A stretch of 64,000 nt of DNA, taken from NCBI GenBank assembly GCA_963777605.1, contig CAVZRV010000029.1, positions 224,001 through 288,000 of the forward strand, read 5' to 3'. A program made the translations under genes and the position numbers. The notes under the pieces are model-generated. The model was given only the letters and a program-made list of their open reading frames with translations. It had not been told where the DNA came from and did no database searches. Numbering within the stretch: position 1 is the stretch's first letter; each line of letters opens with the position of its first letter. Below are positions 31,212 through 61,332 of the stretch, one piece after another. Origin of the DNA: an uncultured Acidobacteriota bacterium (GTDB taxonomy: Bacteria > Acidobacteriota > UBA6911 > RPQK01 > JAPXNP01).

Positions 31212-31297
31212 GCCCGGGTGGCGGAACTGGCAGACGCACAGGACTTAAAATCCTGTGGGGGGGAACCCCCGTACGGGTTCGATTCCCGTCCCGGGCA
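31212..31297 (+). tRNA. tRNA-Leu(TAA), CCA not encoded
   Basis: Acceptor stem GCCCGGG/CCCGGGC-A, D arm GCGGAACTGGCAGACGC, anticodon arm CAGGA-CTTAAAA-TCCTG, long variable arm, T arm ACGGG-TTCGATT-CCCGT. Confidence 0.97.
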
Positions 31298-31434
31298 TTT
31301 GCCCAAAACCCCCGTCCGACGCGGCTTTCCGGCCGACACCCATACTTCGCATTTCGCACTTCGCAGATCGCACTTTCCCCCGGTTGTGCCTGTACTGTGC
31401 CCGCGTCAATCCAACTCCAACTCACTGGAACCAA
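31298..31434 (+). repeat. Conserved left-end (type A) sequence, copy 1
   Basis: Highly similar to 41935-42064 and partly to 32178-32247; contains TGTGCC-N5-TGTGCC and AATCCAACTCCA.CTCA. Confidence 0.85.
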
Positions 31435-31488
31435 GATGGGAGATTTCGCCCTAAAGCTCGTGTTCAACATCGAAAGGCAATGAACTCA

Positions 31489-32067
31489 CTATTCAATTTC
31501 CTCCACCTTGAAATAGGGGACTAGAAGCGCGGCGGCCGGAACATTGTCTTGTCGAGTCCCCCCGGGGCCATCCAGCACCCAAGCCTGGACGGGGAGCAGT
31601 CGGCCCGTTGCCCGATCCTTCCGGATCTGCACGTGCACAGCTGGCCCAGGCAAGACCTTCCCGTCGGCAGGATAGCAGCCTCGGACCCCGCCGTTTCTCT
31701 GTCGTACGTCGCCGTCCTGTTCGAAGTTCTCCCTCAGCGATGGCAACTGGCAGAGGACACCGGCCGACAGGGGCGTGAATTCCCTGCAACCGGTCTCATA
31801 TGGGGCCAGCTCCAACACGAGGCTCTGGATGTCGAAGGGACGCACCGTTGTGGAAACGCCCGAAGGCTGAAAGGCGAACTCGGCCGACCGCGCCGTAGGG
31901 AAGGGGTTGGCGGCGCATAGTTGATAGGTGTTCGGGGACGCTCCTCCCTCAATGACGAGGACCAAAGCGTACTCCACGAGACCCTGGGCTACGGCCGTGG
32001 AAGGCACGAAAGTGAAAAGTGCCAGCACACAAAATCCGAACACAATCCGTTTCGATTTGAACATCAC
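31489..32067 (-). CDS. Hypothetical secreted protein
   Basis: Sec-like signal, AAGGAG RBS; QGLVEYALVL motif follows the signal. Confidence 0.6.
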   Translation of the reverse strand: MMFKSKRIVFGFCVLALFTFVPSTAVAQGLVEYALVLVIEGGASPNTYQLCAANPFPTARSAEFAFQPSGVSTTVRPFDIQSLVLELAPYETGCREFTPLSAGVLCQLPSLRENFEQDGDVRQRNGGVRGCYPADGKVLPGPAVHVQIRKDRATGRLLPVQAWVLDGPGGTRQDNVPAAALLVPYFKVEEIE

Positions 32068-32177
32068 GTCGACTCCTTCAATCGGACGGACATTTAGGGT
32101 GAGTGAGAAAGGATTGATACCATCCTAGCATTCTGATGAACATAGCCACAACCGGTTCTACAGATTGTGACTTGCGA

Positions 32178-32247
32178 AGATCGCACTGTTCCCCGGTTTT
32201 GCCTGTAATGTGTCCGCGAGAATCCAACTCCAGCTCACTGGAACCAA
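32178..32247 (+). repeat. Orphan partial left-end (type A) copy
   Basis: AGATCGCACTGTTCCCCGGTTTTGCCTGTAATGTGTCCGCGAGAATCCAACTCCAGCTCACTGGAACCAA aligns to 31365-31434. Confidence 0.8.
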
Positions 32248-32300
32248 ACACAGGAACCCGGGGCCGACGCGGTAGACATGCAGTTGGCCTCAATGGCGTT

Positions 32301-33251
32301 TCAGAATCTTAGCGGAACTTCAGAATGGAGAATCCCGGCTGGCTCAAGTGGCAGATCATATTTTTTGGCCAGGATCTCAAGAGACCTCTTCCCGAGCTCG
32401 GGGTCAACGCTCGGACCCGTTATTATCTCTGTGATGGGAATGGAGAACGGCGTGGCGGTTGTGGGGAAGAAAAGGCAGGGAACGAGATGACTGCCCCTGA
32501 CAAAGAACTCGCATTTCTCTCTGATCCTCCGGTGCCCGAAAAGCGATACCAAGCGCCATTCCGCTTCTTCAGAGAATGCTGGATCTTTGAAAAGCATGAA
32601 GTGCTGCAGCAGGCGGAATCCGACCCAATTTGCGACCTCAGCGATCAGAGCACCCAGATTAGTTGCGAGTTGACTAGCCATCTCATCTGAAACCACGGCC
32701 GCCGCACGCAAGAGCTTCTCAACCAACGAAACTTGGACCTTGCGTTCATAGATAACGTTGGACAGGAAGAAGCCACCCCTGTCCTCGCCTCCGTTAACAG
32801 GGTCAAACTGTTTCGTTAGTTCTTTCGTGTCAAAACCGATCGAATATCCTGCGCCTTTATCGGCGTACCCCCTCCACTGGGAAAGTTGGTCACGGTTCTC
32901 CGTGAGACAGAAGGCAAACGGCTGATTGTCGGCCCATACATAGCGACCCTCCCTGAGGAACTCGAACACCTTGGAGACTGGTCCCTTAGCATTGAATTCA
33001 GCCGCGATTCCTGTCGCGATAGTATGGATCAGATTCGAGGTGTAAGTTCCTTCGCTGAAGTCGTTCAGATATGCGACGTCACTCAGACGCAGTCTACTGG
33101 ATTTCAGAATGGCCAATAGACCATCTGGAGAAGTGTAGTGATACAGTGTGCTGGGCATGGACCTCCCGAGCGCCAGGCGCTCCTGCCTCCATGGTTCAGA
33201 TTCTTCCATGAGTCTCGTTCGGAGTCGCCCGCTTCGTTCTGCGTCCATCAC
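32301..33251 (-). CDS. DUF2971 domain protein
   Basis: LYHYTS, YLNDFSEG, FCLTENRDQLSQWRGYA..G.GYSIGF, KDPAFSEEAEWR, EIITGP. Confidence 0.85.
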   Translation of the reverse strand: MMDAERSGRLRTRLMEESEPWRQERLALGRSMPSTLYHYTSPDGLLAILKSSRLRLSDVAYLNDFSEGTYTSNLIHTIATGIAAEFNAKGPVSKVFEFLREGRYVWADNQPFAFCLTENRDQLSQWRGYADKGAGYSIGFDTKELTKQFDPVNGGEDRGGFFLSNVIYERKVQVSLVEKLLRAAAVVSDEMASQLATNLGALIAEVANWVGFRLLQHFMLFKDPAFSEEAEWRLVSLFGHRRIREKCEFFVRGSHLVPCLFFPTTATPFSIPITEIITGPSVDPELGKRSLEILAKKYDLPLEPAGILHSEVPLRF

Positions 33252-33717
33252 CTTGGACGTTACTCTCGCCGTCTGACCTCTGAATCGTCACGGTAACTCG
33301 GTGATTCCGTCTATTGTCCGTAGAGACCGGCCTGACTAGCTGAGCAGCATCATGCGCCGAGGTTGATACAGCCCAAGGTCAGGGCTGGTTCCCATTGTTC
33401 GGCTCGGCCGCAATCACTTCGGCCACGGAAAGGTATCGTCCTTGGCCTTGAAGGCCACCCGGCTATACCTGTAGCTGACCACCTGTCCGAGCGCGACGGG
33501 AGCCAAAGGAGAAATGCTCCCGGTATATGCAGGAGATAGGGGAGCACGTTCTCATAGTTGCGCCCTTGACAATCCAACTCCGTACAACTTGCCTGGGGGT
33601 CTGGTTGAAGAGTCTCAGGGGTGGCTTGAAGCTATCTAATCTCCTTTCAGAGGATCAATGTTGAATTGCGTCTTGTTCACCACTTCCCTACCATGTTGAT
33701 CTGGTACTGAGGTTGCA

Positions 33718-34467
33718 ATGACAGAGTTAGACCGAGACCGAGTTCGGGAGTTTCTCAGGTGGACGGATGGTCTGATGCGGGCTATGGAGATAGCTGGACG
33801 TGGCGATGATCCGAAGGACTTATGGAAGTACGCGGGCTATAGGCAGTTCGCCCGGAAGTACAATGACTTGTTAACAATCATCGCTCGGGAGTGTCCGTTA
33901 CCGCCACTGCTCGATCTCTATAAGGTGGATGCAATCCCCGGAAACGCGGACAGTTTCTCGTTTCAGCGCAAGGAGATTTTTGACGGTGTCTATGCAAACC
34001 TCTCATTACTGAAGGGCACCCTTGAAAGCCAGCTCGGTGTCGTGGAGGACGAGACAGAGGCACTGCGCGATTTCTTTCAATCGCGGCTTCGAAGCGCCGT
34101 TCTTCACGAGCCGCAGAAAGAATCCGAGGTCCAGGATGCCGTCGAGACACTGCTGATTGGACGGGGGCTTCAAAAGGGGGTTGAATATGACAGAGAAGTC
34201 GGGCGCGTCAAGGTTTCAACAAAAGAGTTTGTTCCGGACTTCATCTTGCCTCGGTTGTCGTTAGCGGTTGAGGTGAAGCTGGTCAAGAGACAAGGGCGTG
34301 TTTCAGAAGTTGTAGACGAGATCAACGCGGACATCAGGGCATATTCAAAGCGATACAGGAGCTTACTTTTCATCGTCTATGACTTAGGATTTATCCGAGA
34401 CGAGCTTGAATTTAAGCAAGGCCTAGAAGATCCCGGCAATGTGGCGGTGATCATTGTGAAGCAGTGA
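33718..34467 (+). CDS. PD-(D/E)XK nuclease-domain protein (DpnII/MboI-like REase C-terminal domain)
   Basis: ESEVQDAVETLL...PDFILPRLSLAVEVK...DEINADIRAY...LLFIVYD. Confidence 0.72.
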   Translation: MTELDRDRVREFLRWTDGLMRAMEIAGRGDDPKDLWKYAGYRQFARKYNDLLTIIARECPLPPLLDLYKVDAIPGNADSFSFQRKEIFDGVYANLSLLKGTLESQLGVVEDETEALRDFFQSRLRSAVLHEPQKESEVQDAVETLLIGRGLQKGVEYDREVGRVKVSTKEFVPDFILPRLSLAVEVKLVKRQGRVSEVVDEINADIRAYSKRYRSLLFIVYDLGFIRDELEFKQGLEDPGNVAVIIVKQ

Positions 34468-34526
34468 ACGAGTTACTTGGAGATAGAGAGATCCGACGCC
34501 AGTGGAATGGTGCCATGCGCCATTAG

Positions 34527-37535: not shown

Positions 37536-37636
37536 TGCACCACCGTTGAGCCGCCGCGAGATACGTTTAGTGTCATTCTGCTGCTGAAGTGGGCCTCGGT
37601 CAATGCCTATTCGGTCCGCTAGTCTATAATCGAACC

Positions 37637-37861
37637 ATGACGGTGCGCCAGATTCTGGAAGAGGCGAAACGGCTGGAGCCGATCGAACGGGCTGAATTGT
37701 TGGAGCAATTGTTCGCAACCTTCGAGGCCTCCGACCCTTCGGTTGATGCCGCGTGGTCTGTGGAAGTGGAAGAGAGGCTTTCCGCCTATCGAGCGGGCAA
37801 GATTGAAGCGGTTCCCTTCGAAGACGTCCTCGATCGCATCAACAAGGGCCATCGAGGTTGA
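37637..37861 (+). CDS. Addiction-module antitoxin (TIGR02574-like)
   Basis: ILEEAKRLEPIERAELLEQL...DAAWSVEVEERL..Y..G; TATAAT 6 nt before ATG; overlaps the toxin start. Confidence 0.88.
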   Translation: MTVRQILEEAKRLEPIERAELLEQLFATFEASDPSVDAAWSVEVEERLSAYRAGKIEAVPFEDVLDRINKGHRG

Positions 37862-38148
37862 AGATTCACTTCCTGCGTCCTGCGGAAGTTGAGCTCAGAG
37901 AGGCAGTTGATTATTACAATCGACAGTCGCCGGGACTGGGCTACGAGTTCGCCGCCGAGGTGAAGCGGGCCATTGAGCGAATCAAGTCTCATCCGGAGGC
38001 TTGGCACCGTCTATCCGAGAACACACGGCGTTGTCGGCTCAACCGATTCCCATACGCTCTCGTTTACGCTATTGACGGGAACCAGTTGTTGATTTTGGCT
38101 GTAATGCATATGAGTAGGCACCCAGACAGTTGGAAAGGCCGAGCCTGA
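37858..38148 (+). CDS. RelE/ParE-family toxin
   Basis: FLRPAEVELREAVDYY...GLG.EF...RRCRLNRFPYALVY...ILAVMHMSRHPDSW. Confidence 0.92.
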   Translation: MKIHFLRPAEVELREAVDYYNRQSPGLGYEFAAEVKRAIERIKSHPEAWHRLSENTRRCRLNRFPYALVYAIDGNQLLILAVMHMSRHPDSWKGRA

Positions 38149-38251: not shown

Positions 38252-38432
38252 TGTGCCTCCACTGTGCCCGCGGGGATCTCGTCTGAGCTCACCCAAACCA
38301 ACTCCAGCTCAAGGTCGGGTTTCAGGATGATGCGGGTTCTCTTTATATTTCAAAGGCTTACGGAATCACGCAACAGCCCTTAATATCCTGTGGGGGGGAA
38401 CCCCCGTACGGGTTCGATTCCCGTCCCGGGCA
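38252..38432 (+). repeat. attR-like site 1: 127-bp conserved arm plus 54-bp tRNA-Leu 3' copy (38379-38432)
   Basis: Copy of 31244-31297 with one change (CTTAATA); arm has TGTGCC repeats and an IHF-like site at 38348-38360. Confidence 0.9.
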
Positions 38433-38735
38433 TTTCGAAGTGCGAAATTCGAAGTGCGAATTTGAATTTGGCCATATGGAGTGCTGAACCGAGAGGTTCA
38501 GCTTTTGCGCGCCTGGTATGGCTTGCCGTGTCTCAGGAAGCGAAAGCTTCCGTCCTCTTCAATTGTGTACGATACCGGGAGGGGCAATTCATGGGTTTCC
38601 TCGCTGGGCAAGTGATAATGCTTCGGGCCGGCAACCAGGCAGGGCTTTCTCGATCGCTTCCAAGCGGGCCAGTTGCCCCGTTTTCTGGGGACGAACGGCT
38701 TGGGCTTTCCGCTCAACGCCAGACGGGTTCGACGC

Positions 38736-40394
38736 CTAACCGTCGGATTGACGGGCCTGGAGGATCATCATGAGAAACTCAGCCTCATTCATGCCCGCAT
38801 ACGGCATTTCGGGGTGAGGATCGACGGGGACTATCGTATCCAGCTTGGACCAGTACGCCCGGTGGATCGTGTAGTCCTCGGTTTCGGGGTTCCACTCCAA
38901 AAAGAAGATGTACCGCTCGTTGAGCCTGGGGAAGCCCCGGCCGGTAACCGTATAGGTCGCCCATCGTCGATCATTGATATCAAGTGATCCTCCCGCTCGC
39001 GTTCCGGTCAGGACTCCCTGGACAAGCGGCCGGGTCATGGTCCCGTCGATTACACGCTCCACCTTCAGGCGGTATTCCGAATAAATCGCGGATCCATCCA
39101 GAGAATAGAAGCTCTGAATTCCATCCACTGTCGCGATGACAACGGTATCCTGATTGGGGTCCGCTAGTGACGGGAGGTCCGTCGAGACGTGTTCTCTGTT
39201 CTTCCAAACCGTTTGCCATCGTTCCAGGAGACGGGGAATGCCCGGCTGGTTGTACCGCGCGGATCTGCTGTCACGCAGATCTGCGGAAACGGCTGTTGAA
39301 TGACCCTTTGGACTCCTCCGTTCGGGCAATGAGAAGCGCTCGATCTCGGACCACAATCCCTCCAGTCCCAAGGGGTTGCTGCGGAGCTGAACGACCGCTT
39401 CCCGTTCGAACGGAATCAGCAAGGGATCGAATCGCCAGACCTTGTCCAAACCGATTGCGGCAAAGCTCTCGGCGTAGTAGCGTTCATCTTCATTGGCAAA
39501 AATGCCCGTTTGATGTGCCTTGCCGCCTTCATCTGTGACGGCCAACTGAATCCGGCAGGCTCCGCAGCCGCAGGTCCTGCTGAACGCTGTGATCTCCTTT
39601 CCCACCATGGGCTTTCCGTCAAGATGGAAGGTCAGCCGGAACTTCCGGTTTTTCCAGTACTCGACTCGTATTGGTGTGACCCTATTGGTCAAACGGGTAA
39701 TCAAACGGTCCCGTGCATCATCCAGGTCCGTATTTCCGCGGATATGGGCATGCAGACCCGTGGGGAAACGGAACAGGTATTCGAAGTCCCCGTCGGGAAC
39801 TTCGATGAGCCCGTCGTCGTTGCTCTCCGCCACCTTGAGTAAATCTATTCCGTTTGCGACTGTGCAGTGGTTCGACGTGCTCCAGAGCATGTTGATTTCA
39901 ACCTTCGCTCCCGCAACCGGCGTCCCATCGGTGGTCATCAGACGGACCAACCTCTCCTCCGGCCACCGCAGTACGACATCGACCGTAATCACATCGTCGA
40001 TCCCAAGTGCTACTGCTGCATGTCTCGGGAATGAGACCGTCCGGGGAATCGAGAGGTCGGTTTCCTCTCCGAATAACTTGAATGGTTTCGACTTGAGCGG
40101 AGCGTAGCCGGAAGCCCGAAGCAGGATATGCCCTTCCACCGCGTTGGGTATCGGTCGCTCCGGCCACCACCGCTTGAGTTCGTCGGGAGTCAAGACGACA
40201 GTCACCGTGCTGCCGGTCGGCTGAAGACTGTGCCGACGGGTACCCCCATAATTCAAGAGGAGCATCTCGGCCTCAACCGAGGGGATCGGACGACCCTCTT
40301 CGTCGGTCACCTGAAGGATCAGCTCAGCCGCGGACAGTTCCACCATCAGGGCATAGAGGCAGAGCAGAATGACGGATGTCTTTCTCTTGATCAC
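38736..40394 (-). CDS. Hypothetical secreted multi-domain protein (carboxypeptidase-regulatory/Ig-like domains plus C-terminal SAIY..GGS domain)
   Basis: Signal peptide, VTDEEGRPIP and TTDGTPVAGA.V motifs, NHC and CGCGAC; paralogue at 42903-44402. Confidence 0.7.
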   Translation of the reverse strand: MIKRKTSVILLCLYALMVELSAAELILQVTDEEGRPIPSVEAEMLLLNYGGTRRHSLQPTGSTVTVVLTPDELKRWWPERPIPNAVEGHILLRASGYAPLKSKPFKLFGEETDLSIPRTVSFPRHAAVALGIDDVITVDVVLRWPEERLVRLMTTDGTPVAGAKVEINMLWSTSNHCTVANGIDLLKVAESNDDGLIEVPDGDFEYLFRFPTGLHAHIRGNTDLDDARDRLITRLTNRVTPIRVEYWKNRKFRLTFHLDGKPMVGKEITAFSRTCGCGACRIQLAVTDEGGKAHQTGIFANEDERYYAESFAAIGLDKVWRFDPLLIPFEREAVVQLRSNPLGLEGLWSEIERFSLPERRSPKGHSTAVSADLRDSRSARYNQPGIPRLLERWQTVWKNREHVSTDLPSLADPNQDTVVIATVDGIQSFYSLDGSAIYSEYRLKVERVIDGTMTRPLVQGVLTGTRAGGSLDINDRRWATYTVTGRGFPRLNERYIFFLEWNPETEDYTIHRAYWSKLDTIVPVDPHPEMPYAGMNEAEFLMMILQARQSDG

Positions 40395-40464
40395 GATGGT
40401 CGTCTCGCGGGGATCATCGTATCGGCCGGTTTGGTGGATGGCAAACTCCAATTCGGCAGAGTGG

Positions 40465-41157
40465 CTAGTCGGGCTTCATGGTGATCACGACGGTGAAGAT
40501 GACGGATACGGGTTCTCCGCCAAGGTAGGTCGGCTCCCATGTCCATTGTCTGACCGCCTCGGTTGCGGCCTCCGCCAGTTTGCGATTCCCTCGAATAGTC
40601 TTCACGTCCACGACGCTTCCCGTCTTGTCGGCCGTCACCTGGAGCAGGATGGTGTCCTCGATTCCTTCCTGTCTGAGCGCCTCGGGATAGATCGGCGGGA
40701 CGAATACCCGGAGTTTCCGTTCCTGAACGCGCTCACCAACCCGGATCGGTTCTCGACCGCCGTGGGGCGGTGGCTTGTTCACGATCTGAGAGCCTCGGAT
40801 CACGATGGCTTTAGCGACAGCCTGAAGGGGATAGGTTGGGTGCACGTTCGGCTGAAGCCAGAGTTTCAGGAACGATCCAGGTTTGAGTGCGTCGAAATCA
40901 GCGCGCTTGAGCGGTTCGAGATAGATCTCAGTATCGGCGGTGACCGTTATCGAGGTAACGAGATTCTCATCCGAAGGCTCAAATCGGCCTCCCTCATTCC
41001 GGAAGACGGAGAACTCTCCGATGACTCTCCCCGGTTGGTCAAACTTGGTGACTTGCTTGATGAAGCCCCGGAGGTCTGGCGTTCCATGGGGAGGAGCCGA
41101 CGGCACATTGCAAGCGAGAGCCTGGAGGACGAGGACCAACTGAAGGCTTACCAACAT
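40465..41157 (-). CDS. Protein with C-terminal TonB domain
   Basis: PIRVGERVQ...VPPIYPEAL..GIE.T..LQV...G.V..V...LAEAATEAVRQWTWEPTYLGGEPV. Confidence 0.85.
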   Translation of the reverse strand: MLVSLQLVLVLQALACNVPSAPPHGTPDLRGFIKQVTKFDQPGRVIGEFSVFRNEGGRFEPSDENLVTSITVTADTEIYLEPLKRADFDALKPGSFLKLWLQPNVHPTYPLQAVAKAIVIRGSQIVNKPPPHGGREPIRVGERVQERKLRVFVPPIYPEALRQEGIEDTILLQVTADKTGSVVDVKTIRGNRKLAEAATEAVRQWTWEPTYLGGEPVSVIFTVVITMKPD

Positions 41158-41307: not shown

Positions 41308-41496
41308 GTGAAGGTCAGGGATCTGATCAGGTTGATCGAAGAGGACGGATGGTGGCAGGCTCGAACCCGGGGCAGTCATCGTCAATTCAAGCACTCGGAG
41401 AAGCCTGGACTGGTGACCATTTCGGGTAAGATGGGAGATGAACTTGCCCCTGGAACGTTGAACAGCGTTCTGAAGCAGGCGGGACTCAAACGATGA
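41308..41496 (+). CDS. hicA: HicA-family toxin
   Basis: DGW...RTRGSHRQFKH..KPG.VTI.G...ELAPGTLNSVLKQAGL. Confidence 0.93.
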   Translation: MKVRDLIRLIEEDGWWQARTRGSHRQFKHSEKPGLVTISGKMGDELAPGTLNSVLKQAGLKR

Positions 41497-41708
41497 AGCG
41501 TTATTTGATTGTTATCGAGGAAACAAAAAGCGGGTTTTCAGCCTACTCTCCCGATCTGGACGGCTGCATTGCCACGGGAGCGACGCAAGAAGAGGTGGAG
41601 TCGAGAATGAGGGCGGCCATCGAGTTCCACCTTGAGGGACTCAAGGAAGAGGGTTGTCAAATTCCGGAGCCTCACACGGAATCCCGGTATGTCGATGTCG
41701 CTGTTTGA
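41493..41708 (+). CDS. hicB: HicB-family antitoxin (short, no DNA-binding domain)
   Basis: YLIVIE...FSAYSPDLDGCIATGAT.EE...AIEFHLEGL..EG..IPEP; ATGA overlap with hicA. Confidence 0.93.
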   Translation: MKRYLIVIEETKSGFSAYSPDLDGCIATGATQEEVESRMRAAIEFHLEGLKEEGCQIPEPHTESRYVDVAV

Positions 41709-41752: not shown

Positions 41753-41934
41753 TGTGCCTGCAGTGTGTCCGCGTGGATCACGGCTAATCTCACTCGATGC
41801 AACTCCAGCTCAAGGTCGGCTTTCAGCCTGACGCGGCTGCTCTTTATATTTCAACGACTTACAGAGATCACGCAACAGCCCTTAAAATCCTGTGGGGGGG
41901 AACCCCCGTACGGGTTCGATTCCCGTCCCGGGCA
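41753..41934 (+). repeat. attR-like site 2: 128-bp arm plus perfect tRNA-Leu 3' copy (41881-41934)
   Basis: Identical to 31244-31297; IHF-like site at 41849-41861. Confidence 0.92.
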
Positions 41935-42236
41935 TTTGCCCAGAACCCCCGTGCGACGCGGCTTTCCGGCTCGAAAACCCTCCTTCGCACTCCGCACTTC
42001 ACAGATCGCACTTTCCCCCGGTTGTGCCTGTACTGTGTCCGCGAGAATCCAACTCCAGCTCACTTGTAGCAAAGATGAAGAGGAGGTCTCTCCTCCTTCA
42101 CCTGAGATTTCCGGCTCAATCGTAGTCGGTGCTTCCCGATTGTCTGAGAAAGCCTGCGAATCGGGTTGCCTCCGGCACAGCCACCATTCATAATCCAGGG
42201 ACACCTCAAACCGCTTCCGAACGGAGGGCATTCGGT

Positions 42237-42686: not shown

Positions 42687-42759
42687 TCGAACTGTGACGG
42701 TGCGCCAGATTCTGGAAGAGGCGAGACAGCTGGAGCCGATCGAACGGGCTGAATTGTCT
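42683..42759 (+). pseudogene. 5' remnant of the addiction-module antitoxin with its -10 box
   Basis: TATAATCGAAC.(G/A)TGACGGTGCGCCAGATTCTGGAAGAGGCGA...GCTGAATTG, near-identical to 37625-37699, then diverges. Confidence 0.8.
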
Positions 42760-42902
42760 GAAGCAGGACGGCATTCCCGTTCCACCTCCTGCCTCCGAGA
42801 GCGAATTCGTGGAAGTCAACGCTGCTTTGGATTGTGGACGGGAGCCTTGATCGGTCTTCATAAGCCTCCGGCAGCCAAGAGTCGACTTTCAGAGTGACCC
42901 GG

Positions 42903-51367: not shown

Positions 51368-52738
51368 CTACTCGGTCGCGGGGACGACACTCTCCCCAGC
51401 CATCGTGCTTTTCCGCTTCTTCAGGTATTGGTAGATTCCCTCTTCAGCCATCACCTCTTCAATCTCTTCGACTGTTCGCGGGACGAGATGGGTCAAGTTC
51501 TCACAACCATCTTCAGTGATTAAGACGGTATTCTCTATCTTTACTCCATCGATGACATTTCCATCCTTATCTCTGATCTTGATGGCTGGATCAGAGGCCA
51601 CCACCATTCCAGGTTTGAAGTATGTGGTTTTCGAGGAGATTCCGGCGCCGATCACATCATGCACGTCGAGCCCAATCCAGTGATTCGCCTCGATTCGATA
51701 GACGCCCTCTCTTTCCAGGTCGATACCCTGCTTGGCGAGAATCTCACGAACCTCAGCCTCCATATCGATGCTCCTGATGCCGGGCCGGAAGACCTTCCTC
51801 ATGGCTTCCTCAACGGCATAAATTATTCCATTCAGACGTTTCTGCTCCGGTGTAAACTTGCCGTTTATCGGAAATGTCGATGAAATGTCGACGACGTAAT
51901 GACCATATTCTCCACCCACATCGGGCATCACGATATCGCCGTCTTTGATTCTTCTGGAGTTTTGGGAGTAATGAGAGTCATACCACTTCGGGTCCGACGG
52001 GATAATGGGAGGATACCCGAATCCCTGGCCGCCAAGTCTCTTTATCTCATATTCGAAAATGGCCTCCAGTTCCCATTCGTACATCCCCGGCTCAGCAGAT
52101 CTCAGCACTTCCATGTAAGCCAGACTAGAAATCCTGGCCGCCTCTCGCATCACTTCGATTTCCGCCGGACTCTTGATGACTCTCAGTTCGGCAATCGCAC
52201 GGTTCAGATCGGAAAAGCGAAACGATGGGAAATTCTTCTTGATCTGATTGATAAAATGAACTTCTCTGGACAACCTGTTACTGGGATCGACCAGCCCTTT
52301 CGGTTGATACCCGGCATCATCACGATCGAATGGAGTGTAAATATGGTTCGTTTCCGCCTGAAATTCGAAAAGAATACGGCCAAGGTGGGAGACAGGCCGC
52401 ACTTCTTCGATACCCGTTTCTTCTTTGATCTTTTCCTCGGATGATATTTCGGGCAGGAAGAGAGTACTCTCCTTCTTTATTCCGTCTATGATCAGAATGC
52501 AATCAGGATCCTCGACTCCGGTGAAATAGATGAAGTTACTGTTCTGTTTCTCTCCTTCAGCGCCGACAAACAAAGCAATTCCGTCGGGAATCGACTTCAT
52601 CAACTGTGCTCTTCTGCGCTCGTATTCACTTTTTTCGAAGACTCCACCGGCGCACACTGTGGTTATGCTCAAAACTACTAGAACATTCAATATCGCAGAA
52701 AACCTGATTCGCACGATTCGACCTCCCGAGTTGAGCAA
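51368..52738 (-). CDS. Xaa-Pro aminopeptidase (M24B)
   Basis: RRAQLM, NFIYFTG, LRVIKSPAEI, DVGGEY.HY..DIS, HWIGLDVHD, GVKIENTVLITEDG. Confidence 0.9.
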   Translation of the reverse strand: MLNSGGRIVRIRFSAILNVLVVLSITTVCAGGVFEKSEYERRRAQLMKSIPDGIALFVGAEGEKQNSNFIYFTGVEDPDCILIIDGIKKESTLFLPEISSEEKIKEETGIEEVRPVSHLGRILFEFQAETNHIYTPFDRDDAGYQPKGLVDPSNRLSREVHFINQIKKNFPSFRFSDLNRAIAELRVIKSPAEIEVMREAARISSLAYMEVLRSAEPGMYEWELEAIFEYEIKRLGGQGFGYPPIIPSDPKWYDSHYSQNSRRIKDGDIVMPDVGGEYGHYVVDISSTFPINGKFTPEQKRLNGIIYAVEEAMRKVFRPGIRSIDMEAEVREILAKQGIDLEREGVYRIEANHWIGLDVHDVIGAGISSKTTYFKPGMVVASDPAIKIRDKDGNVIDGVKIENTVLITEDGCENLTHLVPRTVEEIEEVMAEEGIYQYLKKRKSTMAGESVVPATE

Positions 52739-52744: not shown

Positions 52745-55700
52745 CTAGTTCTGTCTGCTCCTGCCCAGTTCCAACAAGGCCCACTCAGCTGCGCTTTTCA
52801 AAACGTTTCTAGGCGACTTCATCGTTAACGCTTCCTTCAAAAACGCTTCTTCTGAAGAATTTCCGCATTTTCCAATCGACCTCAGGATTTCCGCCTGGGC
52901 CAGATAGCTATTCTCTGATCGGAATTGTTCCATTAGGAAAGAGACCCATTTCCGATCCCTCAGTCCCCCGATAATCCGAAAGACCGACGCTCTCACTTGA
53001 GAGTTTTCATCCTTGCCAATCTCTTTCAGGAGATTCTCGTTCATGACACCCGCGAACTCCCTCAAAGCCTCAACGGCACTCCTCCTGACGGCCCAGAATG
53101 GGTCATCTTGCGCACTTTTGGACAACTGATCTCTTACACGCTGGTACTCTTCAAACTTTCCCAGCTCCGATGCGGCCCAGCTTCTTCCGATGACGTCATC
53201 ATTCGCCAGCTGAAAGAGAAGTTCATCCACCTCTTTCTCAAAGGTCCACTCTTTCAGCAGATAATTCCCCTCGTCGAACCGGACCAGAAGAGGCTTTTCA
53301 TCTCGCGGCGAAGTCAAATGTCTGTTCCCTCTGGTTGATCCAGACTTCTTTGGAAGTCCTTCCTCTTGAGGTGACGATCCCGACCACAACGGGCATATGA
53401 TAGACGGCATTTCCCGACCTGAAATCTTGAATCTGGCTAACTTTCAACCGGACAGTGCCGGAATTCTCAAGCCACTGGTAACTAACATCGAATACGGGGT
53501 GTCCCGCCTTATAAATATATTGGTCGAAGAACCAGTCCATGTTACGCCCTGTCGTTTCCTTCACGGCCAACATAAAATCATGAGTATCTACAGGCTGAAA
53601 CTCATGCTTGTGGAGAAAATTCTTTAACACTCTGAAGAACGGCGCATCACCCAAAATGTACCGCAACATGTGAAGGACGCAGGCCCCCTTTGGATAGGTA
53701 TGGCTGTCAAAATTCTGGCCAGGTTCTTCATAGCGCGTAAATACAATAGGTCGAGTGTATTCACGCCGAGCCTCTTCGAAATAGTCGTTCTTCTTTTGCA
53801 GCAGAGCGATTGCACATTCATCTTCGCCCTTGTCAAAGCAAGTGTAGAGATAATCCGAATAGGTTGCAAAACTCTCGTTCAGCCAAGTTTCGGACCATGT
53901 TCTCAAGGTGACAAGGTTCCCAAACCATTGATGCGCCACTTCGTGAGCAATAATTCTCTGCCAGGAGTAATCTTTGTCGGCTTTCCTGTCATAAATGACG
54001 TTCTGCCCGAGAATTGTCGCCGATGTTGCTTCCGCTCCTCCTCCCTGGGTCGGTGTTTCCACCTGATCATATTTTGCCCAAGGGTAGTCGTAGCCGAAGA
54101 GATTGCTGAAGAAATCGATCATCTCGGGCGTCTTCTTGAAGATCCGGCGCGCATCTTCGACATCTTGTTCATAAACCCAGTAATTGACGGGAAGAGAGCC
54201 TAGAGAATCTTCAATGACGGCAAAGGGGGCAATGGCTACCATGGATAGATAGGTCGAATGAGGTTCTTCTATTTAGGTTCTGCTTGAGGGCCTTGAACAT
54301 CAGCTCGATCTGCCATCGTTCCTTGTAAATGGCCGCGATGGTCGCCGGGACGAGTTTGAACAGGTTGGTCAGAAACGCAGGCGCCCTGGACGGGATCGTC
54401 GATTTCGACGAGGCGGAAGCGACAGGGCCGTCCTTGGTGCAGGAGGCCGTAGAGATGGATGATCTGATCGGAGACGACGGGAGAGTTCTCGGGCAGCGGA
54501 AGCTGCTTGACCACCCCGTAGTTGGCGTTGCTTTTCAGCCGGGTGACGAAGAAGACCCCTGCTCGGTGAGGTCGCGTACCAGCGTAGTCGGTATAGCCCG
54601 GTCGAAGACGACAATGGTCCCCGCTTCGAAGTGCAGCTGCGGCCGGCCGTCAGATCGGAGACGGCGCCTTCGGTGATGCAGGCGAATTCGGCAAGTAGCC
54701 GTCGTGATCCAGAAGGAGGTGGAGATTGACGGCCCCTTTGGTGCGCTGGAACGGGCCCAGTCGAATAGCGAGCACACAGATCGATCACGGTGGCGTCCAG
54801 GCTGACCAGCGGGTTTTTGAAGCGGAACGGCTTGCGGCGCCGGCCACGGTCAGCGTCCGGCACCGATCGAGCAGGCAATGGAACACCTGCTCGTAAAGCT
54901 CCCAGGGACGGTGCTCGTTGGCATAGGACAGAGTCGAGCGCTTGGGAATCCGGATGCCGAGGTGGCCAATTTGCCTTCGCAACTGGCCAGCCCACCGCAG
55001 ATTTCCCGCAGGCTTTGGGCTTTGCCCAGGTGGCAGAACAGCATGGAAACGAACTGGGTCCAGCAGCCGAAACCCCGGGCGTGGCGCTCGGCTTTGGTCT
55101 CTCGGACCAATTCTGGAACTCGAGACGCGGAAAAAGCTGGAGAAGTTGGCTGAAAATGCTGCAAAATCGATTCACGGGCTGGGTCTCCTCTTCGATTGGA
55201 TCTGTTTGACAACCCAATGTACGAGGGCGGCTCAGCTCAACCTGAATCTAATTGGGACCAGTGATACGTGACGGTCCCATCCAGATGTTCGGTGACCTTC
55301 TCGAGCCGTCCATTGGAGAGGACTTTATTCGGTTTTTCAACAGTGGCGATCAACTCCATCGTGACCTTGTCATGAGGGTAGTCGTAGCATGGAAACCAGT
55401 ATCGGGCCTCATCGGGCCAGGAATCGGTGGAGACCATCCTGGGATTTCGGTCAGTCTCATCGCTGAAGAAGAGGCCTTGTTCAGGGTTAGTTACATGATA
55501 TCGGACCGTAAAGGTCAGATCCTCACCGTAGCCATAGGTCCGGGGAAAAGAGATGATCAGCTTCTCACCGCTCTGCTCGAACGTGAGTGGCAAATACCGA
55601 CCATCGAAAACTTCTGTAATAACCAGGCCAGCTGCATCCAGAACGCATTTCTGAAAGCCATCTGTCAATGGCGTCAAAGTCACTCTATTCTCGCCCCAGA

Positions 55701-55872
55701 GTCTCTTCTTATTTAGATCGAAGTTCAGTTTCAGACGATAATGTCGAGCATCGAAATCATGGCTTCTCTCTACCTGTTCGGGTCTTTTATAGACATCAAT
55801 ATTCTGGGCTGAAATGTTTACCGCGCAGAGAACAAGGGCAATAGCCGTGATTTTGAAGATCTTCATTTGCAT
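52745..55872 (-). pseudogene. M1-family aminopeptidase with C-terminal HEAT repeats, interrupted by IS4 sequence and one frameshift
   Basis: ARYWFPCYDYPHDK, LSNG, PHSTYL, GGAE, AHEVAHQWFGNLVT...WLNESFATY, YPKGA; three fragments. Confidence 0.88.
54270..55263 (-). mobile_element. Second IS4-family copy, 3'-truncated and heavily frameshifted
   Basis: High nucleotide similarity to 45589-46180; keeps the middle region (VFDR, LTNLFKLVPATIAAIYKERWQIELMFKALKQNL). Confidence 0.85.
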
Positions 55873-56137: not shown

Positions 56138-56650
56138 GTGGTCTTGGGAGCGCACACACTCAGTAGCGAAGAACTCGCACCCGCTGCGAGAGTGGACCCC
56201 AGGGCCCTTTATCGTCTTCTCCGCACGTTAAGCACGGTGGGCGTTGTCTCGGAGTCGCGCGACCAAAGATTCACGTTGGGGCCCCTCGGAGAGGCGTTGC
56301 GAAGCGACGCGTCCTGTTCGATGCGGGCTTGGGCCATCTTCAGCGGCGAGCCCTTCTATTTGCAGGCGTGGGACCAGATCGTTCATAGCATTCAGACCGG
56401 CCAGCCCGCCTGGGAGCACGTACATGAGATGCCCATATTGAGTACATCGGAAAGCACCCGGACACAGGGCAGATCTTCGATCAGGCGATGACCAGTCTCT
56501 CCGCGAGAGAAGCTCCAGCGATCATCGATGCGTACGACTTCTCCAGCACTCGCAAGTTGGCAGACATCGGCGGTGGCCAGGGTCTGCTTCTGCGCACGAT
56601 TCTCAAGTCCCATGCCAACATGACTGGCATCCTTTTCGATCGCCAACCCC
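56138..56650 (+). pseudogene. O-methyltransferase (Methyltransf_2 with dimerisation domain) fragment
   Basis: ALYRLLRTLSTVGV...FTLGPLGEAL, AYDFS...ADIGGGQG.LL..IL...GILFD; frameshifted and truncated. Confidence 0.82.
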
Positions 56651-56878
56651 GCTCTATCTTCCTCAAGTCTTTGCTGCAGTCGTGTAACTGGAACGCAAAC
56701 CCACAACCTCGACTTCAATACGAATCACTCTCAGCCAGCGAAGTAGGAATCGAAATCACTGATCGTCTTTGTTCCTTGGCCCGCCCCGGGCAAGCTCCAG
56801 AACACCGTTCGGACGGGCCTTTCCCCCTCTTTCCCGTACCTTGAACCACGAGCCATGAACCCGTTGCAGAGCCTAGAT

Positions 56879-57059
56879 TGTGCCCGAAGTGTGCCCGCGG
56901 GAATCACGTCTAATCTCACGCAATCCAATTCCAGCCAAAAGTCGACTTTCAGCCCGACGCGGCTTCTCTCTATATTTCAACACCTTACAGGAGCACGCAG
57001 CAGCCCTTAAAATCCTGTGGGGGGGAACCCCCGTACGGGTTCGATTCCCGTCCGGGGCA
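56879..57059 (+). repeat. attR-like site 3: 127-bp arm plus tRNA-Leu 3' copy (57006-57059)
   Basis: One mismatch to 31244-31297; IHF-like site at 56975-56987. Confidence 0.9.
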
Positions 57060-57421
57060 TTTGCCTTCGGAAATCCCAAGGTCCAAGGGTCCAAATCTCA
57101 GGGCCGACGGGACCGATGGGACGGATGGAACTGGGGGGCGGGACGGCTTTGCGGCAATGCGACGGCCTGGGACGATGGACCAATCCGGGGGGCACGCAAC
57201 CGATGGTGGAGCGATCTCGGCCAGTGTCCCATGGGTCCCATGGAAGTCCCATCAGTCTCAGGCCGTGCCATTTTCCGCGAAGCCTCAGCCCCATACTCTT
57301 CACCCGTCCGATCGGTAAGACATCCTGGTCATTCTCATTGTTCGGGTCGGCCACCGTCGTGATGCCTGCGGGTAGCAGGACAGCATCAACCGGAGGCACA
57401 GAGAGATGCTGGTCAGGGAAG

Positions 57422-59186
57422 TCAGTAGCCGATACGAAGCGGAAGGCTCCAAGTATCCAGCTCGACCGGATCCGCCGGGGCATTGGTGATGGCAGCCGTG
57501 TCGACGTTCTGGCGGACGCTCATCATCGAGATACCATACTCGCAGGAGATGGACGCCGATCCCAGGAAGGGCTGCCCAATGGAGATGTGACCACGCGAAA
57601 AACTCGTCGGCGAAACGGCTCTTCTGTTCAAAGCCGCGGAGATCGAGGCTGGAGGATCCCAAAAGAGCTCCCCCCATCCCCTCATACAAGTTGAGTTGAC
57701 AGTGGTTCATCTTTGAACTGGCGTTCTGAATCGCCAGGCCTTGGCGGACTTGGTGGCTCTGCTGAATGGGGGTTCTCCAGGTCTTCGAATAGCGCCCGGG
57801 CAGCACGGTCACCTCGGGTCCATCCAGGGACCAGAAGCCCGAGACCGAATAAGAGCCCAGCCCCGTGAACCGTGTTGTCGCCGGCACGATATCGTCGAGA
57901 TCGGACGACACTTCCTTGGTCTCCATCGGATCTACTTGGATGGTCTTCTCCTCCATCAGAACACCTTCCGGCGAATAGAGGGCTACATCGACCTCCATTG
58001 GAGTCCGCTCGAAGCTGGAGAGCAAATACCTGGTTGCGCCGGGCACACTCTGGGGGGCAAATCGGAGATTCCCCAGATTCAGGTCCGCCGCCTTGAACTC
58101 GCCGCCCACATTACCGAGGATCCATCCCTTGCCCCGTTCCTGATCGACATCGAAGCCCAGAATATCGTCGAAGTCGGTATCGAACCGACCGAAGAGCCGG
58201 ATCGGGTCATCGGCGCCCACATCGCTGTACTCGAGCCCGTACAAGCGGGAACCCCAGGAGACCGCAGCCCGATTCATACCCAGTGGCCCGGCGGAGAAGC
58301 TGGTGCCCGCGGTTGACGGAAACAGGAACGTCTCTTTGGCGAAAGTCTTGCCGGCAGGGTCGTAGAGGTAGGAAACCAGATGATCCTCTCCGGGCAGCAA
58401 GTAGCTCGATCGAGTGCCCAGATTGACGACACCGGACGATCTCCCATACTCAGCCTCGAAGCCGGGCGCGGATGTGATGTTTCCGAGATCCGTCACGGTG
58501 TGGGAAAAATCGGAGTACTTGAGATCGATGGCCTGCAACTTCCAGTCTTTTGTCGTCGCAAAGATCGAGAAGAGGCCCAGTTCGTCGTTGGCCACGATGC
58601 GAGGGCGAATCCCTCCCGTGGATCTCGACAGATAGGAGGCACTGAGGTTGAGGTCGACCTGATTGTAGAGCGAGTTGGTTCCGCAATAGACCCGCAGTTC
58701 CTCTTCGAGCTGGTGAATTCCGATTGCGCAGGTCAGCCCGTCCGCGGACGTGGCGAGGTCCGCATCGGCAAAATTCGCACCGCCCGGGGCTGTGTAGAAC
58801 TCCTCCCAGTCGCCCGCCACGCTGATCTGGGCCACATGGAGCGAACCCGCTTCCGTGAGAGCGGCCCTGTAAGAGAGAGGACTCGCGCTCGGCGCGGTGC
58901 TGATGGAGGAAAAACTGGAGTTTGGCTGAAGGACGACGGCACTGCCATCCCGGTTGAAATGGGTCAGATTGTCGGAACCCGCGGTGACGCCCGGGGTGAT
59001 GGCCAGTACCGCCGAAAGATCTCGTGCCGGCGCGATGGCCGAAGCCTCCACTTCAGATACTGTGAAGCTCGAGGACGTTCTCGTTCCATCCACCACGGGA
59101 ACCCCGGCGTTCAAGCAGGGAATCAGACAGACTGCAAACATGACAACCAGACCTTTTCTTGTACGACTCACGATCTCTCCTTTCAC
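57422..59186 (-). CDS. Hypothetical secreted beta-rich protein (frameshift near 57595)
   Basis: Signal peptide; C-terminal GLAIQN...SRFADEFF domain continues in the 57422-57685 frame. Confidence 0.6.
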
Positions 59187-59660
59187 TGATCGCCTGATCT
59201 CGAGTCAGGCGGCAGGTTGGGTGGCCGGACATGAGTCAGCCGATGCCGAGGGGGCAGAGTGTTCAGGTCTCTCGTGAGCGATGAAGCTTGGCCGAAACGT
59301 CCGGCTTGCCGGATTTGAGAGCGAGTATGCCACCGAGCGATGCGAGGCGCAAGTCGTCCAGCGCCTGCATGGCCCGCGACTTTCAAGAGCGGATCGGGAT
59401 CCTGACGAGGTCCGACTTCGCGTGGCGGGGCGAATGGACAGTCTCGGGGCGGCCCTCCGCATCGGCAACGAGTTGGTGTCTCTCTACACGTGCGGACCTG
59501 CTGGCGGCGGTGGCGTTACGAAGTCGTCGCGCGAAATCGACGCGAAGGGCTGCACCTTCATACCGAGGGACATTGTCGAGACCAGGGTCCAGTTCCTGGA
59601 GACAAAGTCAGTGAAGCTGAGAGAAATTGCACACTGTCGGGCCGGAGACGAGGGGGATCT

Positions 59661-59791
59661 ATCTCAGCCTCAACCGAAGGGATCGGACGACCCTCTTCAT
59701 CGGTCACCTGTAGGATCAGCTCAGCTGCGGACAGTTCCACCATCAGGGCAAGAAGGCAGAGCAGAATGACGGATGTCTTTCCCTTGATCAC
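59661..59791 (-). pseudogene. 5' remnant (signal peptide) of the 38736-40394-type gene
   Basis: IKGKTSVILLCLLALMVELSAAELILQVTDEEGRPIPSVEAE, nearly identical to 40264-40394. Confidence 0.8.
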
Positions 59792-59861
59792 GATGGTCGT
59801 CTCGCAAAGCTCATCCTATCGGCCGGTTTGGTGGAGGGCAAGGTTCAATTCGCCAGGGGGA

Positions 59862-60555
59862 CTAGTCGGGCTTCATGGTGATCACGACGGTGAAGATGAC
59901 GGATACGGGTTCTCCGCCAAGGTAGGTCGGCTCCCATGTCCATTGTCTGACCGCCTCGGTTGCGGCCTCCGCCAGTTTGCGATTCCCTCGAATAGTCTTC
60001 ACGTCCACGACGCTTCCCGTCTTGTCGGCCGTCACCTGGAGCAGGATGGTTTCTCTCGATTCCTTCCTGTCTGCGCGCCTGGGATAGACCGGCGGGACGA
60101 AAACCCGGAGTTTCCGTTCCTGAACGCGCTCACCAACCCGGATCGGTTTTCGACCGCCGTGGGGCGGTGGCTTGTTCACGATCTGAGAGCCTCGGATCAC
60201 AGATAGCTTTAGCGACAGCCTGAAGGGAATAGGTTGGGTGCACGTTCGGCTGAAGCCAGAGTTTCAGGAACGATCCAGGTTTGAGTGCGTCGAAATCAGC
60301 GCGCTTGAGCGGTTCGAGATAGATCTCAGTATCGGCGGTGACCGTTATCGAGGTAACGAGATTCTCATCCGAAGGCTCAAATCGGCCTCCCTCATTCCGG
60401 AAGACGGAGAACTCTCCGATGACTCTCCCCGGTTGGTCAAACTTGGTGACTTGCTTGATGAAGCCCCGGAGGTCTGGCGTTCCATGGGGAGGAGCCGACG
60501 GCACATTGCAAGCGAGAGCCTGGAGGACGAGGACCAACTGAAGGCTTACCAACAT
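59862..60555 (-). CDS. TonB C-terminal domain protein, second copy (frameshifted)
   Basis: Near-identical to 40465-41157, with indels at about 60200 and 60050-60080. Confidence 0.82.
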
Positions 60556-60705
60556 CTCACCAACTTAGACTGCACTGGCGGCTTCTTTGTTCCCGCCTTT
60601 CGCCCGGTCGAGATCTGGTCCATCACATCGTAGCTGATCTCATAGAGTTGAGCGTTTGGTCACATCGTGTTGGTGCATCCTCTGACACGCGAGTATTCTT
60701 GACCA

Positions 60706-60894
60706 GTGAAGGTCAGGGATCTGATCAGGTTAATCGAAGAGGACGGATGGCGGCAGGCTCGAACCCGGGGCAGTCATCGTCAATTCAAGCACTCGGAGAA
60801 GCGTGGACTGGTGACGATTTCGGGTAAGATGGGAGATGAACTCGCTCCTGGCACGTTGAACAGCGCTCTGAAACAGGCAGGACTCAAAAGATGA
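60706..60894 (+). CDS. hicA: HicA-family toxin, second copy
   Basis: GSHRQFKH motif; three amino-acid differences from copy 1. Confidence 0.93.
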   Translation: MKVRDLIRLIEEDGWRQARTRGSHRQFKHSEKRGLVTISGKMGDELAPGTLNSALKQAGLKR

Positions 60895-61106
60895 AGCGTT
60901 ATTTGATTGTTATCGAGCAAACAGAAACCGGGTTTTCAGCCTACTCTCCCGATCTGGACGGCTGCATCGCCACGGGCGCTACGCAAGAAGAGGTAGAGCG
61001 GAGAATGAGGGCGGCCATTGAGTTCCACCTTGAAGGACTCAAAGAAGAGGGTTGTCAAATTCCGGAGCCTCATACGGAATCCCGGTATGTCGATGTAGCT
61101 GTTTGA
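60891..61106 (+). CDS. hicB: HicB-family antitoxin, second copy
   Basis: PDLDGCIATG motif; four amino-acid differences from copy 1. Confidence 0.93.
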   Translation: MKRYLIVIEQTETGFSAYSPDLDGCIATGATQEEVERRMRAAIEFHLEGLKEEGCQIPEPHTESRYVDVAV

Positions 61107-61150
61107 GCGACTTGCGCTGGGAAGAAATTGCCTGAACCTGGGTTCGGAAG

Positions 61151-61332
61151 TGTGCCCACATTGTGCCCGCGGGAATCTCGTCTGATCTCACCTAATCCAA
61201 CTCCAGCTCAAGGTCGATTCTTTGGACTGACGCAGATTCTCTTTATATTTCAATCACTTACAGGATCACGCAACAGCCCTTAAAATCCTGTGGGGGGGAA
61301 CCCCTGTACGGGTTCGATTCCCGTCCCGGGCA
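61151..61332 (+). repeat. attR-like site 4: 128-bp arm plus tRNA-Leu 3' copy (61279-61332)
   Basis: One mismatch to 31244-31297; IHF-like site at 61248-61260. Confidence 0.9.

Follow-up and report, generated by a model that had tools for sequence, protein, structure and literature searches.

A tandem array of att-bounded modules without a detected integrase at tRNA-Leu(TAA) of an uncultured Acidobacteriota bacterium

Four modules lie in tandem at the gene for tRNA-Leu(TAA) in a stretch of 64,000 nucleotides, referred to here as the window, from an uncultured soil Acidobacteriota bacterium (assembly GCA_963777605.1, here G000; contig CAVZRV010000029.1, here C29; window C29:224001–288000). Each module ends in a copy of the 3′ part of the tRNA gene, each copy is preceded by a conserved arm, and no recombinase gene was detected in any module. 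The array is probably a stack of integrase-less modules resembling cis-mobilizable elements (CIMEs), which would have been built by site-specific integration and would depend on an integrase acting in trans. The modules belong to a family of tRNA-integrating elements that occurs across this Acidobacteriota order. They number four, or perhaps six if two decayed junctions are counted. The array is a new example of a known way for genomic islands to grow, and the CIME with tandem accretion is the known category that fits it.

Architecture of the array

The window contains a single tRNA gene, identified by ARAGORN as tRNA-Leu(TAA), and this is the only copy of the gene among the 52 tRNAs of the assembly (coordinates of all features are given in Table 1). 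A 57-nt block, which runs from the anticodon loop through the 3′ end of the tRNA and includes the TTT that follows, constitutes the att core. It recurs four times downstream with zero to one mismatch, giving five copies in total when the tRNA is counted, and the successive core starts are 7135, 3502, 15125 and 4273 nt apart. The modules are therefore bounded by direct repeats of the 3′ end of their target; they range from 3.4 to 15 kb and have genes on both strands. An earlier note, made from the letters of the window alone, had described the 3′ part of the tRNA as four direct repeats and had read these as att-type junctions left by crossover in the anticodon loop. The repeats are as it described, and its reading of them is supported.

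All four distal cores are preceded by a homologous arm, the P arm, which measures 127 nt from its initial TGTGCC to the core. Pairwise identity among the four arms is 76–83%, in agreement with the diverged arm described in the same note. The upstream side of the tRNA is unrelated to these arms and has no such arm. As the cores differ by no more than one mismatch while the arms are only 76–83% alike, the modules appear to stem from separate insertions of diverged elements and not from tandem duplication. Serial Campbell-type insertion into a single tRNA would give this pattern.

That the repeats were collapsed or chained during assembly is so improbable that it need hardly be entertained. The assembly is a metagenome-assembled genome (MAG) of 6.7 Mb in 53 contigs, which is 96.7% complete with 5.7% contamination. 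In addition to this contamination, a short contig (C18) duplicates part of the array at 97.9% identity, and further cores are found at the ends of contigs C27 and C28, all of which would suit an artefact. However, the array is in the middle of a 511-kb contig, and the independent assemblies of two relatives, G010 and G014, show the same kind of array. Furthermore, contigs from other sequencing runs cover arm–core junctions, and the arms are mutually different, hence the repeats are not collapsed copies of one another.

The arm motif

The P arm opens with the motif TGTGCC-N5–7-TGTGYCCGCG, after which come several conserved blocks and a box rich in AT. The same motif is present on the same strand about 87 nt after the tRNA, and again after repeat 2, in what is called the P′ arm. 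Thus, a motif-bearing P′ arm follows two of the four cores that start a module, and a P arm precedes every one of the four distal cores. It had been proposed that the units keep their att ends: all four have the P arm and core, but only two of the four have the motif-bearing, tRNA-proximal arm. When the array was compared to Rfam, the tRNA and a group II intron were the only matches and the arms had none.

The half-site pair occurs 10 times in the 6.7-Mb genome, every time in such an arm. Among these arms are three that adjoin 3′ fragments of tRNA-Arg(TCT) (contigs C31, C35 and C30), so that the arm family is not bound to one tRNA. These fragments, which have P or P′ arms of this family, are at C35:87314–96388, C30:154216–154382 and C31:138652–139180, none of them at the tRNA-Arg(TCT) gene itself (C30:3835–3911).

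Within the order, the motif was found in 33 of 76 genomes, and the reversed pattern in none of the 76 (this tally and the 61-genome tally given below include genome G018, on which no conclusion depends). An alignment of 15 arm-plus-core units from eight genomes, in which one unit has a tRNA-Arg(TCT) core, contains 48 invariant columns. When viral and metagenome contigs were scanned for the motif, 136 loci were obtained; most are chance matches, and the real ones were chosen by the tRNAs or integrases nearby. Among the real ones, the motif is located 37–100 nt after genes for tRNA-Asn, tRNA-Lys, tRNA-Arg(ACG) and tRNA-Gly, and beside an integrase that adjoins tRNA-Cys.

Eight soil metagenome loci (L099, L104, L110, L119, L127, L139, L152 and L154) form a second, distinct family that follows a double TGTGCCC motif. 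Its tail has the form ...ACCCCAAACCA...CCAGCCAAC...AAAAACCCC. Judged from this family, use of the arm site seems to extend far outside the order.

Search for a recombinase

The integrase profile PF00589, run against all six frames of the genome, gave 30 matches, none of which is in the window; the nearest is about 49 kb past its end. When 22 of the genome's own integrase frames were compared to the window by tblastn, the best E value was 0.04. A hidden Markov model (HMM) was also built from 11 integrases, including those found adjoining the arm motif, and its best E value among six-frame peptides of 30500–62500 was 0.4. The serine recombinase profiles PF00239 and PF07508 have zero matches genome-wide. 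No HTH_17 excisionase was found in the window, and elsewhere in the genome HTH_17 excisionase-like genes are situated just upstream of four tRNA-linked integrases. The earlier claim that the modules lack an integrase withstood these searches, which also detected no degraded remnant in the modules, and no att site of the array has a tyrosine integrase of its own beside it, as an autonomous island would.

Several candidates were considered and rejected. Two weak tblastn matches (E values of 0.23 and 0.47) suggested that the open reading frame (ORF) at 31489–32067 was an integrase remnant. This ORF has no Pfam match at an E value of 5, is not matched by the HMM and has an N-terminal signal peptide. 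Similarly, the ORFs of 571, 555 and 628 amino acids (aa) near the repeats were considered as unknown recombinases; these have signal peptides and no Pfam match. The integrase beside tRNA-Arg(TCT) on C30 was considered as the cognate enzyme, but it is part of a neighbouring tandem element and there is no TGTGCC motif by the intact gene. This element (C30:1–3911), which is cut by the contig end, contains an HTH_17 excisionase-like gene, the integrase, an XRE-like helix-turn-helix (HTH) gene and a fragment of an S24 (LexA/CI-like) repressor. It is likely a prophage or an island of a different arm type.

The sites could in principle be serviced by a dedicated host system, that is, by a chromosomal integrase away from the array, as IntI does for an integron. 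The 30 PF00589 matches in the genome and the presence of arrays in many genomes of the order would agree with this proposal, which is nevertheless very improbable. There is no integrase beside the tRNA or any arm in G000, and the whole genome of G010, which has an array, yields only four PF00589 matches, the two top-scoring of which are taken as Xer-type from their scores alone. In addition, the integrase types that adjoin the motif are patchy in family f1. Among the 15 other genomes of this family, the type found in G046 occurs in one and the type described in the next section, from contig L096, in seven, where it is both intact and more than 40% identical only in G012.

Autonomous relatives and a proposed mechanism

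Elements with the same arms and their own integrase do exist. One is L096, a 9.6-kb contig from a viral collection and from another organism. In it, tRNA-Leu(TAA) is followed after about 65 nt by a variant of the motif and then by an integrase gene reading toward the tRNA. After the integrase come genes for TerL, HNH, an HTH protein, a portal and a prohead protease, and the motif appears again about 135–160 nt before a second Leu core. This is the layout of the modules in the window with an integrase and head genes added. Further examples come from G050:C17, where tRNA-Arg(TCT) precedes two copies of the motif with an integrase between them that shares 50% identity with the L096 enzyme, and from G012:C9, a genome of the window's own family. 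The intact integrase of the latter (402493–403491), 42–44% identical to that of L096, is within a unit bounded by a Leu core and P′ motif on one side and by P arms on the other. The earlier note had suggested looking for an autonomous element with TGTGCC arms. Such elements were found in L096, G012 and G050, at tRNA-Leu(TAA) and tRNA-Arg(TCT), but this assembly contains no cognate integrase.

Fragments of L096-type integrases are also present in G006, G009 and G013, and in G046 they are near Leu cores. Two other loci were rejected as complete elements: G046:C15, with an integrase, a Leu core and a P′ motif, could not be delimited, as there is no second core within 10 kb, and in G029:C22 the motif has no adjoining tRNA core. 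No integrase was found by tblastn in six of eight further motif-bearing loci.

From these comparisons a complete element is proposed to consist of the tRNA 3′ core, a spacer of about 65–85 nt, the P′ arm motif, a tyrosine integrase gene directed toward the tRNA, the cargo and a P arm that again opens with this motif, about 130 nt ahead of the second core. Crossover would occur in the anticodon loop. Each insertion would then rebuild the tRNA with the 3′ part of the incomer and push the previous 3′ part outward, thereby producing the direct repeats. The cores would have stayed near-identical while the arms diverged because every core once served in the sole tRNA-Leu(TAA) gene. The four modules have the P arm and core, two of them also have the motif-bearing P′ arm, and none has an integrase or excisionase. 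As modules of this kind encode neither enzyme, they could move only if the integrase came in trans from an autonomous relative, for example a small phage-like element. The toxin–antitoxin (TA) pairs beside the arms probably stabilise the modules, and homologous recombination between arms and TA genes may reshuffle module halves.

Exchange between genera

Arm 4 with its core was used as a query against 61 genomes; 48 gave a match, in most cases at the tRNA itself. Complete units of arm and core are present in seven of the 61, namely G000, G002, G006, G009, G010 and G014, which are of the same family, and G056, which is of another. G010 (on a 746-kb contig) and G014 (on a 1.07-Mb contig) have arrays at their own tRNA-Leu(TAA), and neither array contains a PF00589 match. 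The smallest module of G010, at 1.26 kb, consists of a HicAB pair and an arm only.

Module content differs between relatives, a comparison that the earlier note had proposed, and has moved between genera, as comparisons to G010 and G014 show. The left part of module 4 (57163–59463) is 96% identical in nucleotide sequence to both relatives, versus 74–75% for the chromosomal gene upstream of the tRNA. At the protein level, its 628-aa product and the 587-aa proteins of G010 and G014 share 95% identity over 531 residues, versus 69–70% for the flank protein. Between G010 and G014 themselves, seven module segments are 91–99% identical while the flank is 77.6% identical, and the order of the segments differs. 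In G014, G002 and G010, the variable arm of some cores differs from that of the resident tRNA, which is consistent with their import from other hosts. The right end of module 1 is matched at 98% identity by one contig of another metagenome (run X2), which passes, at the exact end of core 1, into a class A P′ arm, thereby skipping module 2; it comes from a relative and not from this strain. No excision product was seen; among public sequencing runs, the best one contains 0.13 of the sampled words. As to the distal boundary of the array in relatives, the downstream marker gene is a member of a multi-copy family, and the two genes just past repeat 4 have no match in the loci fetched from relatives.

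Homologous recombination alone, with the tRNA, arms and TA genes as anchors of homology and no site-specific recombinase at work since the first insertion, is an improbable account of the array. It would explain why the modules are mosaic, with the left of module 4 matching G010 and G014 at 96% and its right part being in places a 93–99% copy of the right part of module 2, and why the order of modules is shuffled between G010 and G014. It leaves unexplained the origin of at least four direct tRNA repeats, each with its own diverged arm, the integrase of the complete elements that share these arms, and the conservation of the motif across the order.

Relics or mobile modules

Several findings weigh against a stack of modules that is served in trans. 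No L096-type integrase was found in this assembly at an E value of 1e-15, the best tblastn match being 22.6% identical, and none of the genome's integrases adjoins a TGTGCC arm. The P′ motif is absent after repeats 1, 3 and 4, so that modules 2 and 4, with a P arm only, have incomplete att sites. Decayed junctions are seen at 32.2 kb and 42.9 kb in the window, as a core remnant in G010, and in cores that have a 94-nt insertion. The segments that relatives share at high identity begin at an att core and end within modules or span several. As these segments are not bounded by att sites on both sides, homologous recombination may account for part of the exchange. Finally, in family f14, C-terminal integrase fragments are found a few kb from Leu cores, which indicates that ordinary decay does occur. 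As to mobility in particular, it is the missing resident integrase, the missing P′ motifs and the decayed junctions that count against it, while the conserved arms, near-intact cores and recent exchange between genera point toward it, to the extent that sequence comparison can indicate.

These same findings could mean that the modules are dead relics of autonomous islands from which the integrase and excisionase were deleted, and that they came to be shared when larger blocks were transferred and then recombined homologously. We regard this as rather unlikely, although it is the rival to be taken most seriously. In addition to the absence of a cognate integrase, the P′ motifs missing from two of four modules, the decayed junctions, the f14 fragments and the shared blocks that span several modules, it is favoured by the pseudogenes in module 3 and by the integrase remnant beside the Arg-core arm on C31 of this genome. 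That remnant abuts the Arg-core copy, and its 107 aa show 93% identity to the intact integrase that adjoins the tRNA-Arg gene. In contrast, relics leave unexplained why there is no integrase remnant whatsoever in the four modules here, nor any PF00589 match in the arrays of G010 and G014. Moreover, arm blocks are invariant across families, the cores have zero to one mismatch, module DNA is 92–99% identical between genera, and one metagenome contig switches its neighbour exactly at the end of a core. On balance, the integrase-less modules are therefore still read here as units that were probably inserted one after another with an integrase provided in trans, and that may still be mobile.

A bolder possibility, which is put forward tentatively and is doubtful at present, is that the order hosts self-sustaining, att-only hitchhikers, which retain just the arm motif and a tRNA core, and the cargo of which is reduced in the extreme to one TA pair. 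They would pass from genus to genus with the borrowed integrase, and perhaps the capsid as well, of relatives that resemble satellites or prophages. Here, TGTGCC-N-TGTGCCCGCG would be the common handle across tRNA targets, which are Leu-TAA and Arg-TCT in this genome and, in metagenomes, perhaps also Asn, Lys, Gly, Arg-ACG and Cys. The result would be a tRNA-anchored cassette system that parallels integrons.

If the modules are indeed moved in trans, accessory genes of a major soil phylum, including TA pairs, defence-like genes and genes for secreted proteins, would travel as minimal att-bounded packets without a recombinase. Island-finding tools that need an integrase would miss such packets. 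The arm motif, with its 10 matches in 6.7 Mb all being in arms, provides a simple and specific search handle and is a candidate binding site for the N-terminal domain of L096-type integrases. A search of the literature for such arrays in Acidobacteria found none; the motif itself was not among the searches.

Comparison with known systems

Integrons, among them sedentary chromosomal integrons, and clusters of attC sites lacking integrases (CALINs) are rows of accessory units between recombination sites, often TA cassettes, and the integrase may be absent nearby. The array resembles them in being composed of accessory units between recombination sites, with TA genes and no integrase in the vicinity. 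The suggestion in the earlier note that it works like an integron did not hold up, however. There is no IntI-type or other integrase adjacent to the array, and no attI, attC-type hairpin sites (no attC model was run) or common promoter. In addition, the junctions are 3′ parts of a tRNA with arms of the phage-integrase kind, and in place of single genes in the same orientation the modules contain several genes on both strands.

Tandem islands at tRNA or tmRNA genes, such as the ssrA islands of Dehalococcoides, reportedly accumulate by successive insertions into a single RNA gene, are separated by direct repeats of the 3′ end of this gene and each carry a recombinase. Serial insertion and 3′-end repeats would be common to both systems, but the modules here are without a recombinase or a remnant of one. 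The pdif modules of Acinetobacter plasmids and other Xer/dif elements carry small cargo, often TA or resistance genes, between XerC/D sites, and their recombinase is encoded elsewhere. The modules described here are likewise small, site-bounded cargo units, but their sites are of the tRNA core plus arm type and a phage-type integrase is expected. Capsid-forming phage satellites and mini-prophages are the comparison for L096, which in about 9 kb encodes an integrase, TerL, HNH, portal and prohead protease. The modules of the window have the same arm layout and none of these five genes.

The closest correspondence is to CIMEs. These lack genes for integration and transfer, keep attL and attR, and undergo tandem accretion, as with ICESt1 and ICESt3 of Streptococcus thermophilus (PMC5704250). 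The likeness extends to the lack of integration genes, the att boundaries, the tandem arrangement at the 3′ end of a target gene and the kinship with autonomous elements whose att sites are the same. In the window, att sites bound the modules, no integration, excision or transfer genes were found, and autonomous relatives share the core, motif and spacing (L096, G050:C17 and G012:C9).

There are also differences. The array here is made up purely of integrase-less modules, at least four of them, and neither the array nor the genome contains an autonomous partner; the same is true of two related genera. The modules can be as small as one TA pair, and one arm type serves both Leu-TAA and Arg-TCT. 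Furthermore, the autonomous relative has phage head genes and not conjugation genes, and mobilisation of the modules is here a proposal.

Module cargo

ORFs were called by a codon-usage score trained on the genome and scanned against Pfam and PADLOC. The Pfam set comprised 36 called ORFs, of which 34 are between the tRNA and repeat 4 and two in the distal flank, together with the gene that precedes the tRNA and encodes a BNR/sortilin-like protein. The cargo is as the earlier note had listed it, namely TA pairs, a restriction-endonuclease-like gene, secreted proteins and peptidases (Table 1). In three of the four modules a TA pair is directly before the arm. No conjugation or phage genes were found in the Pfam scan of the ORF set; conjugation families were not searched frame by frame.

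Table 1. Features of the array, with positions in the window
Feature	Position	Strand	Remarks
tRNA-Leu(TAA)	31211–31298	+	ARAGORN; 3′ part 31244–31300 is the att core
P′ arm, class A, tRNA-proximal	31301–31440	+	terminator-like hairpin, then motif TGTGCC-N6-TGTGCCCGCG at 31385–31405
Module 1: 192-aa protein	31489–32067	-	signal peptide, no Pfam match; between two P′-type motifs
Orphan P′ arm copy	32147–32247	+	no adjoining core; motif variant 32198–32218; possibly a decayed junction
Module 1: DUF2971 protein	32301–33251	-	matches candidate defence family PDC-S31
Module 1: DpnII/MboI-like restriction-endonuclease-fold protein	33718–34467	+	
Module 1: TA pair	37589–38148	+	Unstab_antitox antitoxin 37589–37861, ParE toxin 37858–38148; directly before arm
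P arm, module 1 (distal)	38252–38378	+	
Direct repeat 1 of tRNA 3′ part	38379–38435	+	1 mismatch
Module 2: 571-aa secreted protein	38736–40451	-	no family; paralogue of 42903–44570 (67.5% aa identity)
Module 2: TonB_C-domain protein	40465–41157	-	
Module 2: TA pair	41308–41708	+	HicA 41308–41496, HicB 41493–41708; before arm
P arm, module 2	41753–41880	+	
Direct repeat 2	41881–41937	+	0 mismatches
P′ arm, class A, module 3	41938–42075	+	87% identical to 31299–31438; motif 42023–42043
Antitoxin-gene fragment and 33-nt arm-like piece	42681–42904	+	possible decayed junction inside module 3
Module 3: 555-aa secreted protein	42903–44570	-	paralogue of 571-aa protein
Module 3: IS4-like (DUF4372) transposase remnant	45337–46089	-	second, diverged copy 54369–55217
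Module 3: group II intron	46216–47872	+	Rfam; reverse-transcriptase ORF 46788–47702, 304 aa
Module 3: M24 (aminopeptidase P-like) peptidase	51368–52738	-	
Module 3: M1 aminopeptidase gene, two pieces	53298–55872	-	53298–54242 and 55237–55872; split by second IS remnant
Module 3: O-methyltransferase, two short frames	56138–56844	+	likely pseudogene; just before arm 3
P arm, module 3	56879–57005	+	
Direct repeat 3	57006–57062	+	1 mismatch
Module 4: segment with 628-aa secreted-protein gene	57163–59463	-	gene 57300–59186
Module 4: right part	59862–61106		TonB_C fragment 59862–60200 (-), HicA 60706–60894, HicB 60891–61106
P arm, module 4	61151–61278	+	
Direct repeat 4	61279–61335	+	1 mismatch; presumed chromosomal flank then begins

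Module 3, which also encodes a membrane protein, contains a possible decayed junction. Its antitoxin-gene fragment shares 79 of 85 nt with the antitoxin region at 37624–37707, and the arm-like piece (42872–42904) matches arm 3 at 28 of 33 positions. The group II intron is just downstream of the first IS4-like insertion sequence (IS) remnant and scores 140 bits for D1–D4 and 39 bits for the D5–D6 region in Rfam. The two IS remnants, taken as 45337–46132 and 54261–55217, are direct copies, about 90% identical in patches and 9 kb apart. They bracket the intron, two unknown genes and the M24 peptidase in a manner like that of a decayed composite transposon. A search of a protein atlas with the 628-aa protein of module 4 gave no usable match.

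Additional observations

Leu cores outside the array were observed near contig ends at C27:600810–601854 and C28:1–250. On C27, two cores bracket a 1-kb unit that has only a TonB_C gene, the product of which is 88% identical in aa sequence to that of module 2. These cores may belong to a second array or reflect strain heterogeneity. The 5.9-kb contig C18 corresponds to C29:283587–289479, which covers the end of module 4, repeat 4 and the flank, and looks like a co-assembled strain variant of the same structure.

The insertions of about 94 nt in Leu cores are homologous and occupy the same spot in the T-loop in all three cores concerned (G000:C28:1–250, G010 L022:15489–15620 and G014 L025:17822–17950). 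Between the BNR-protein gene and the tRNA (30803–30983) there are three tandem copies of a 59-nt G+C-rich unit. A dispersed repeat of about 80 nt, rich in GTGCGAA units, follows repeat 1 (38474–38553) and is present at about 40 other sites in the genome. From its sequence it looks like a repetitive extragenic palindromic (REP)-type element, and related stretches are found after repeat 4 and after the tRNA-Val(CAC) gene on C11.

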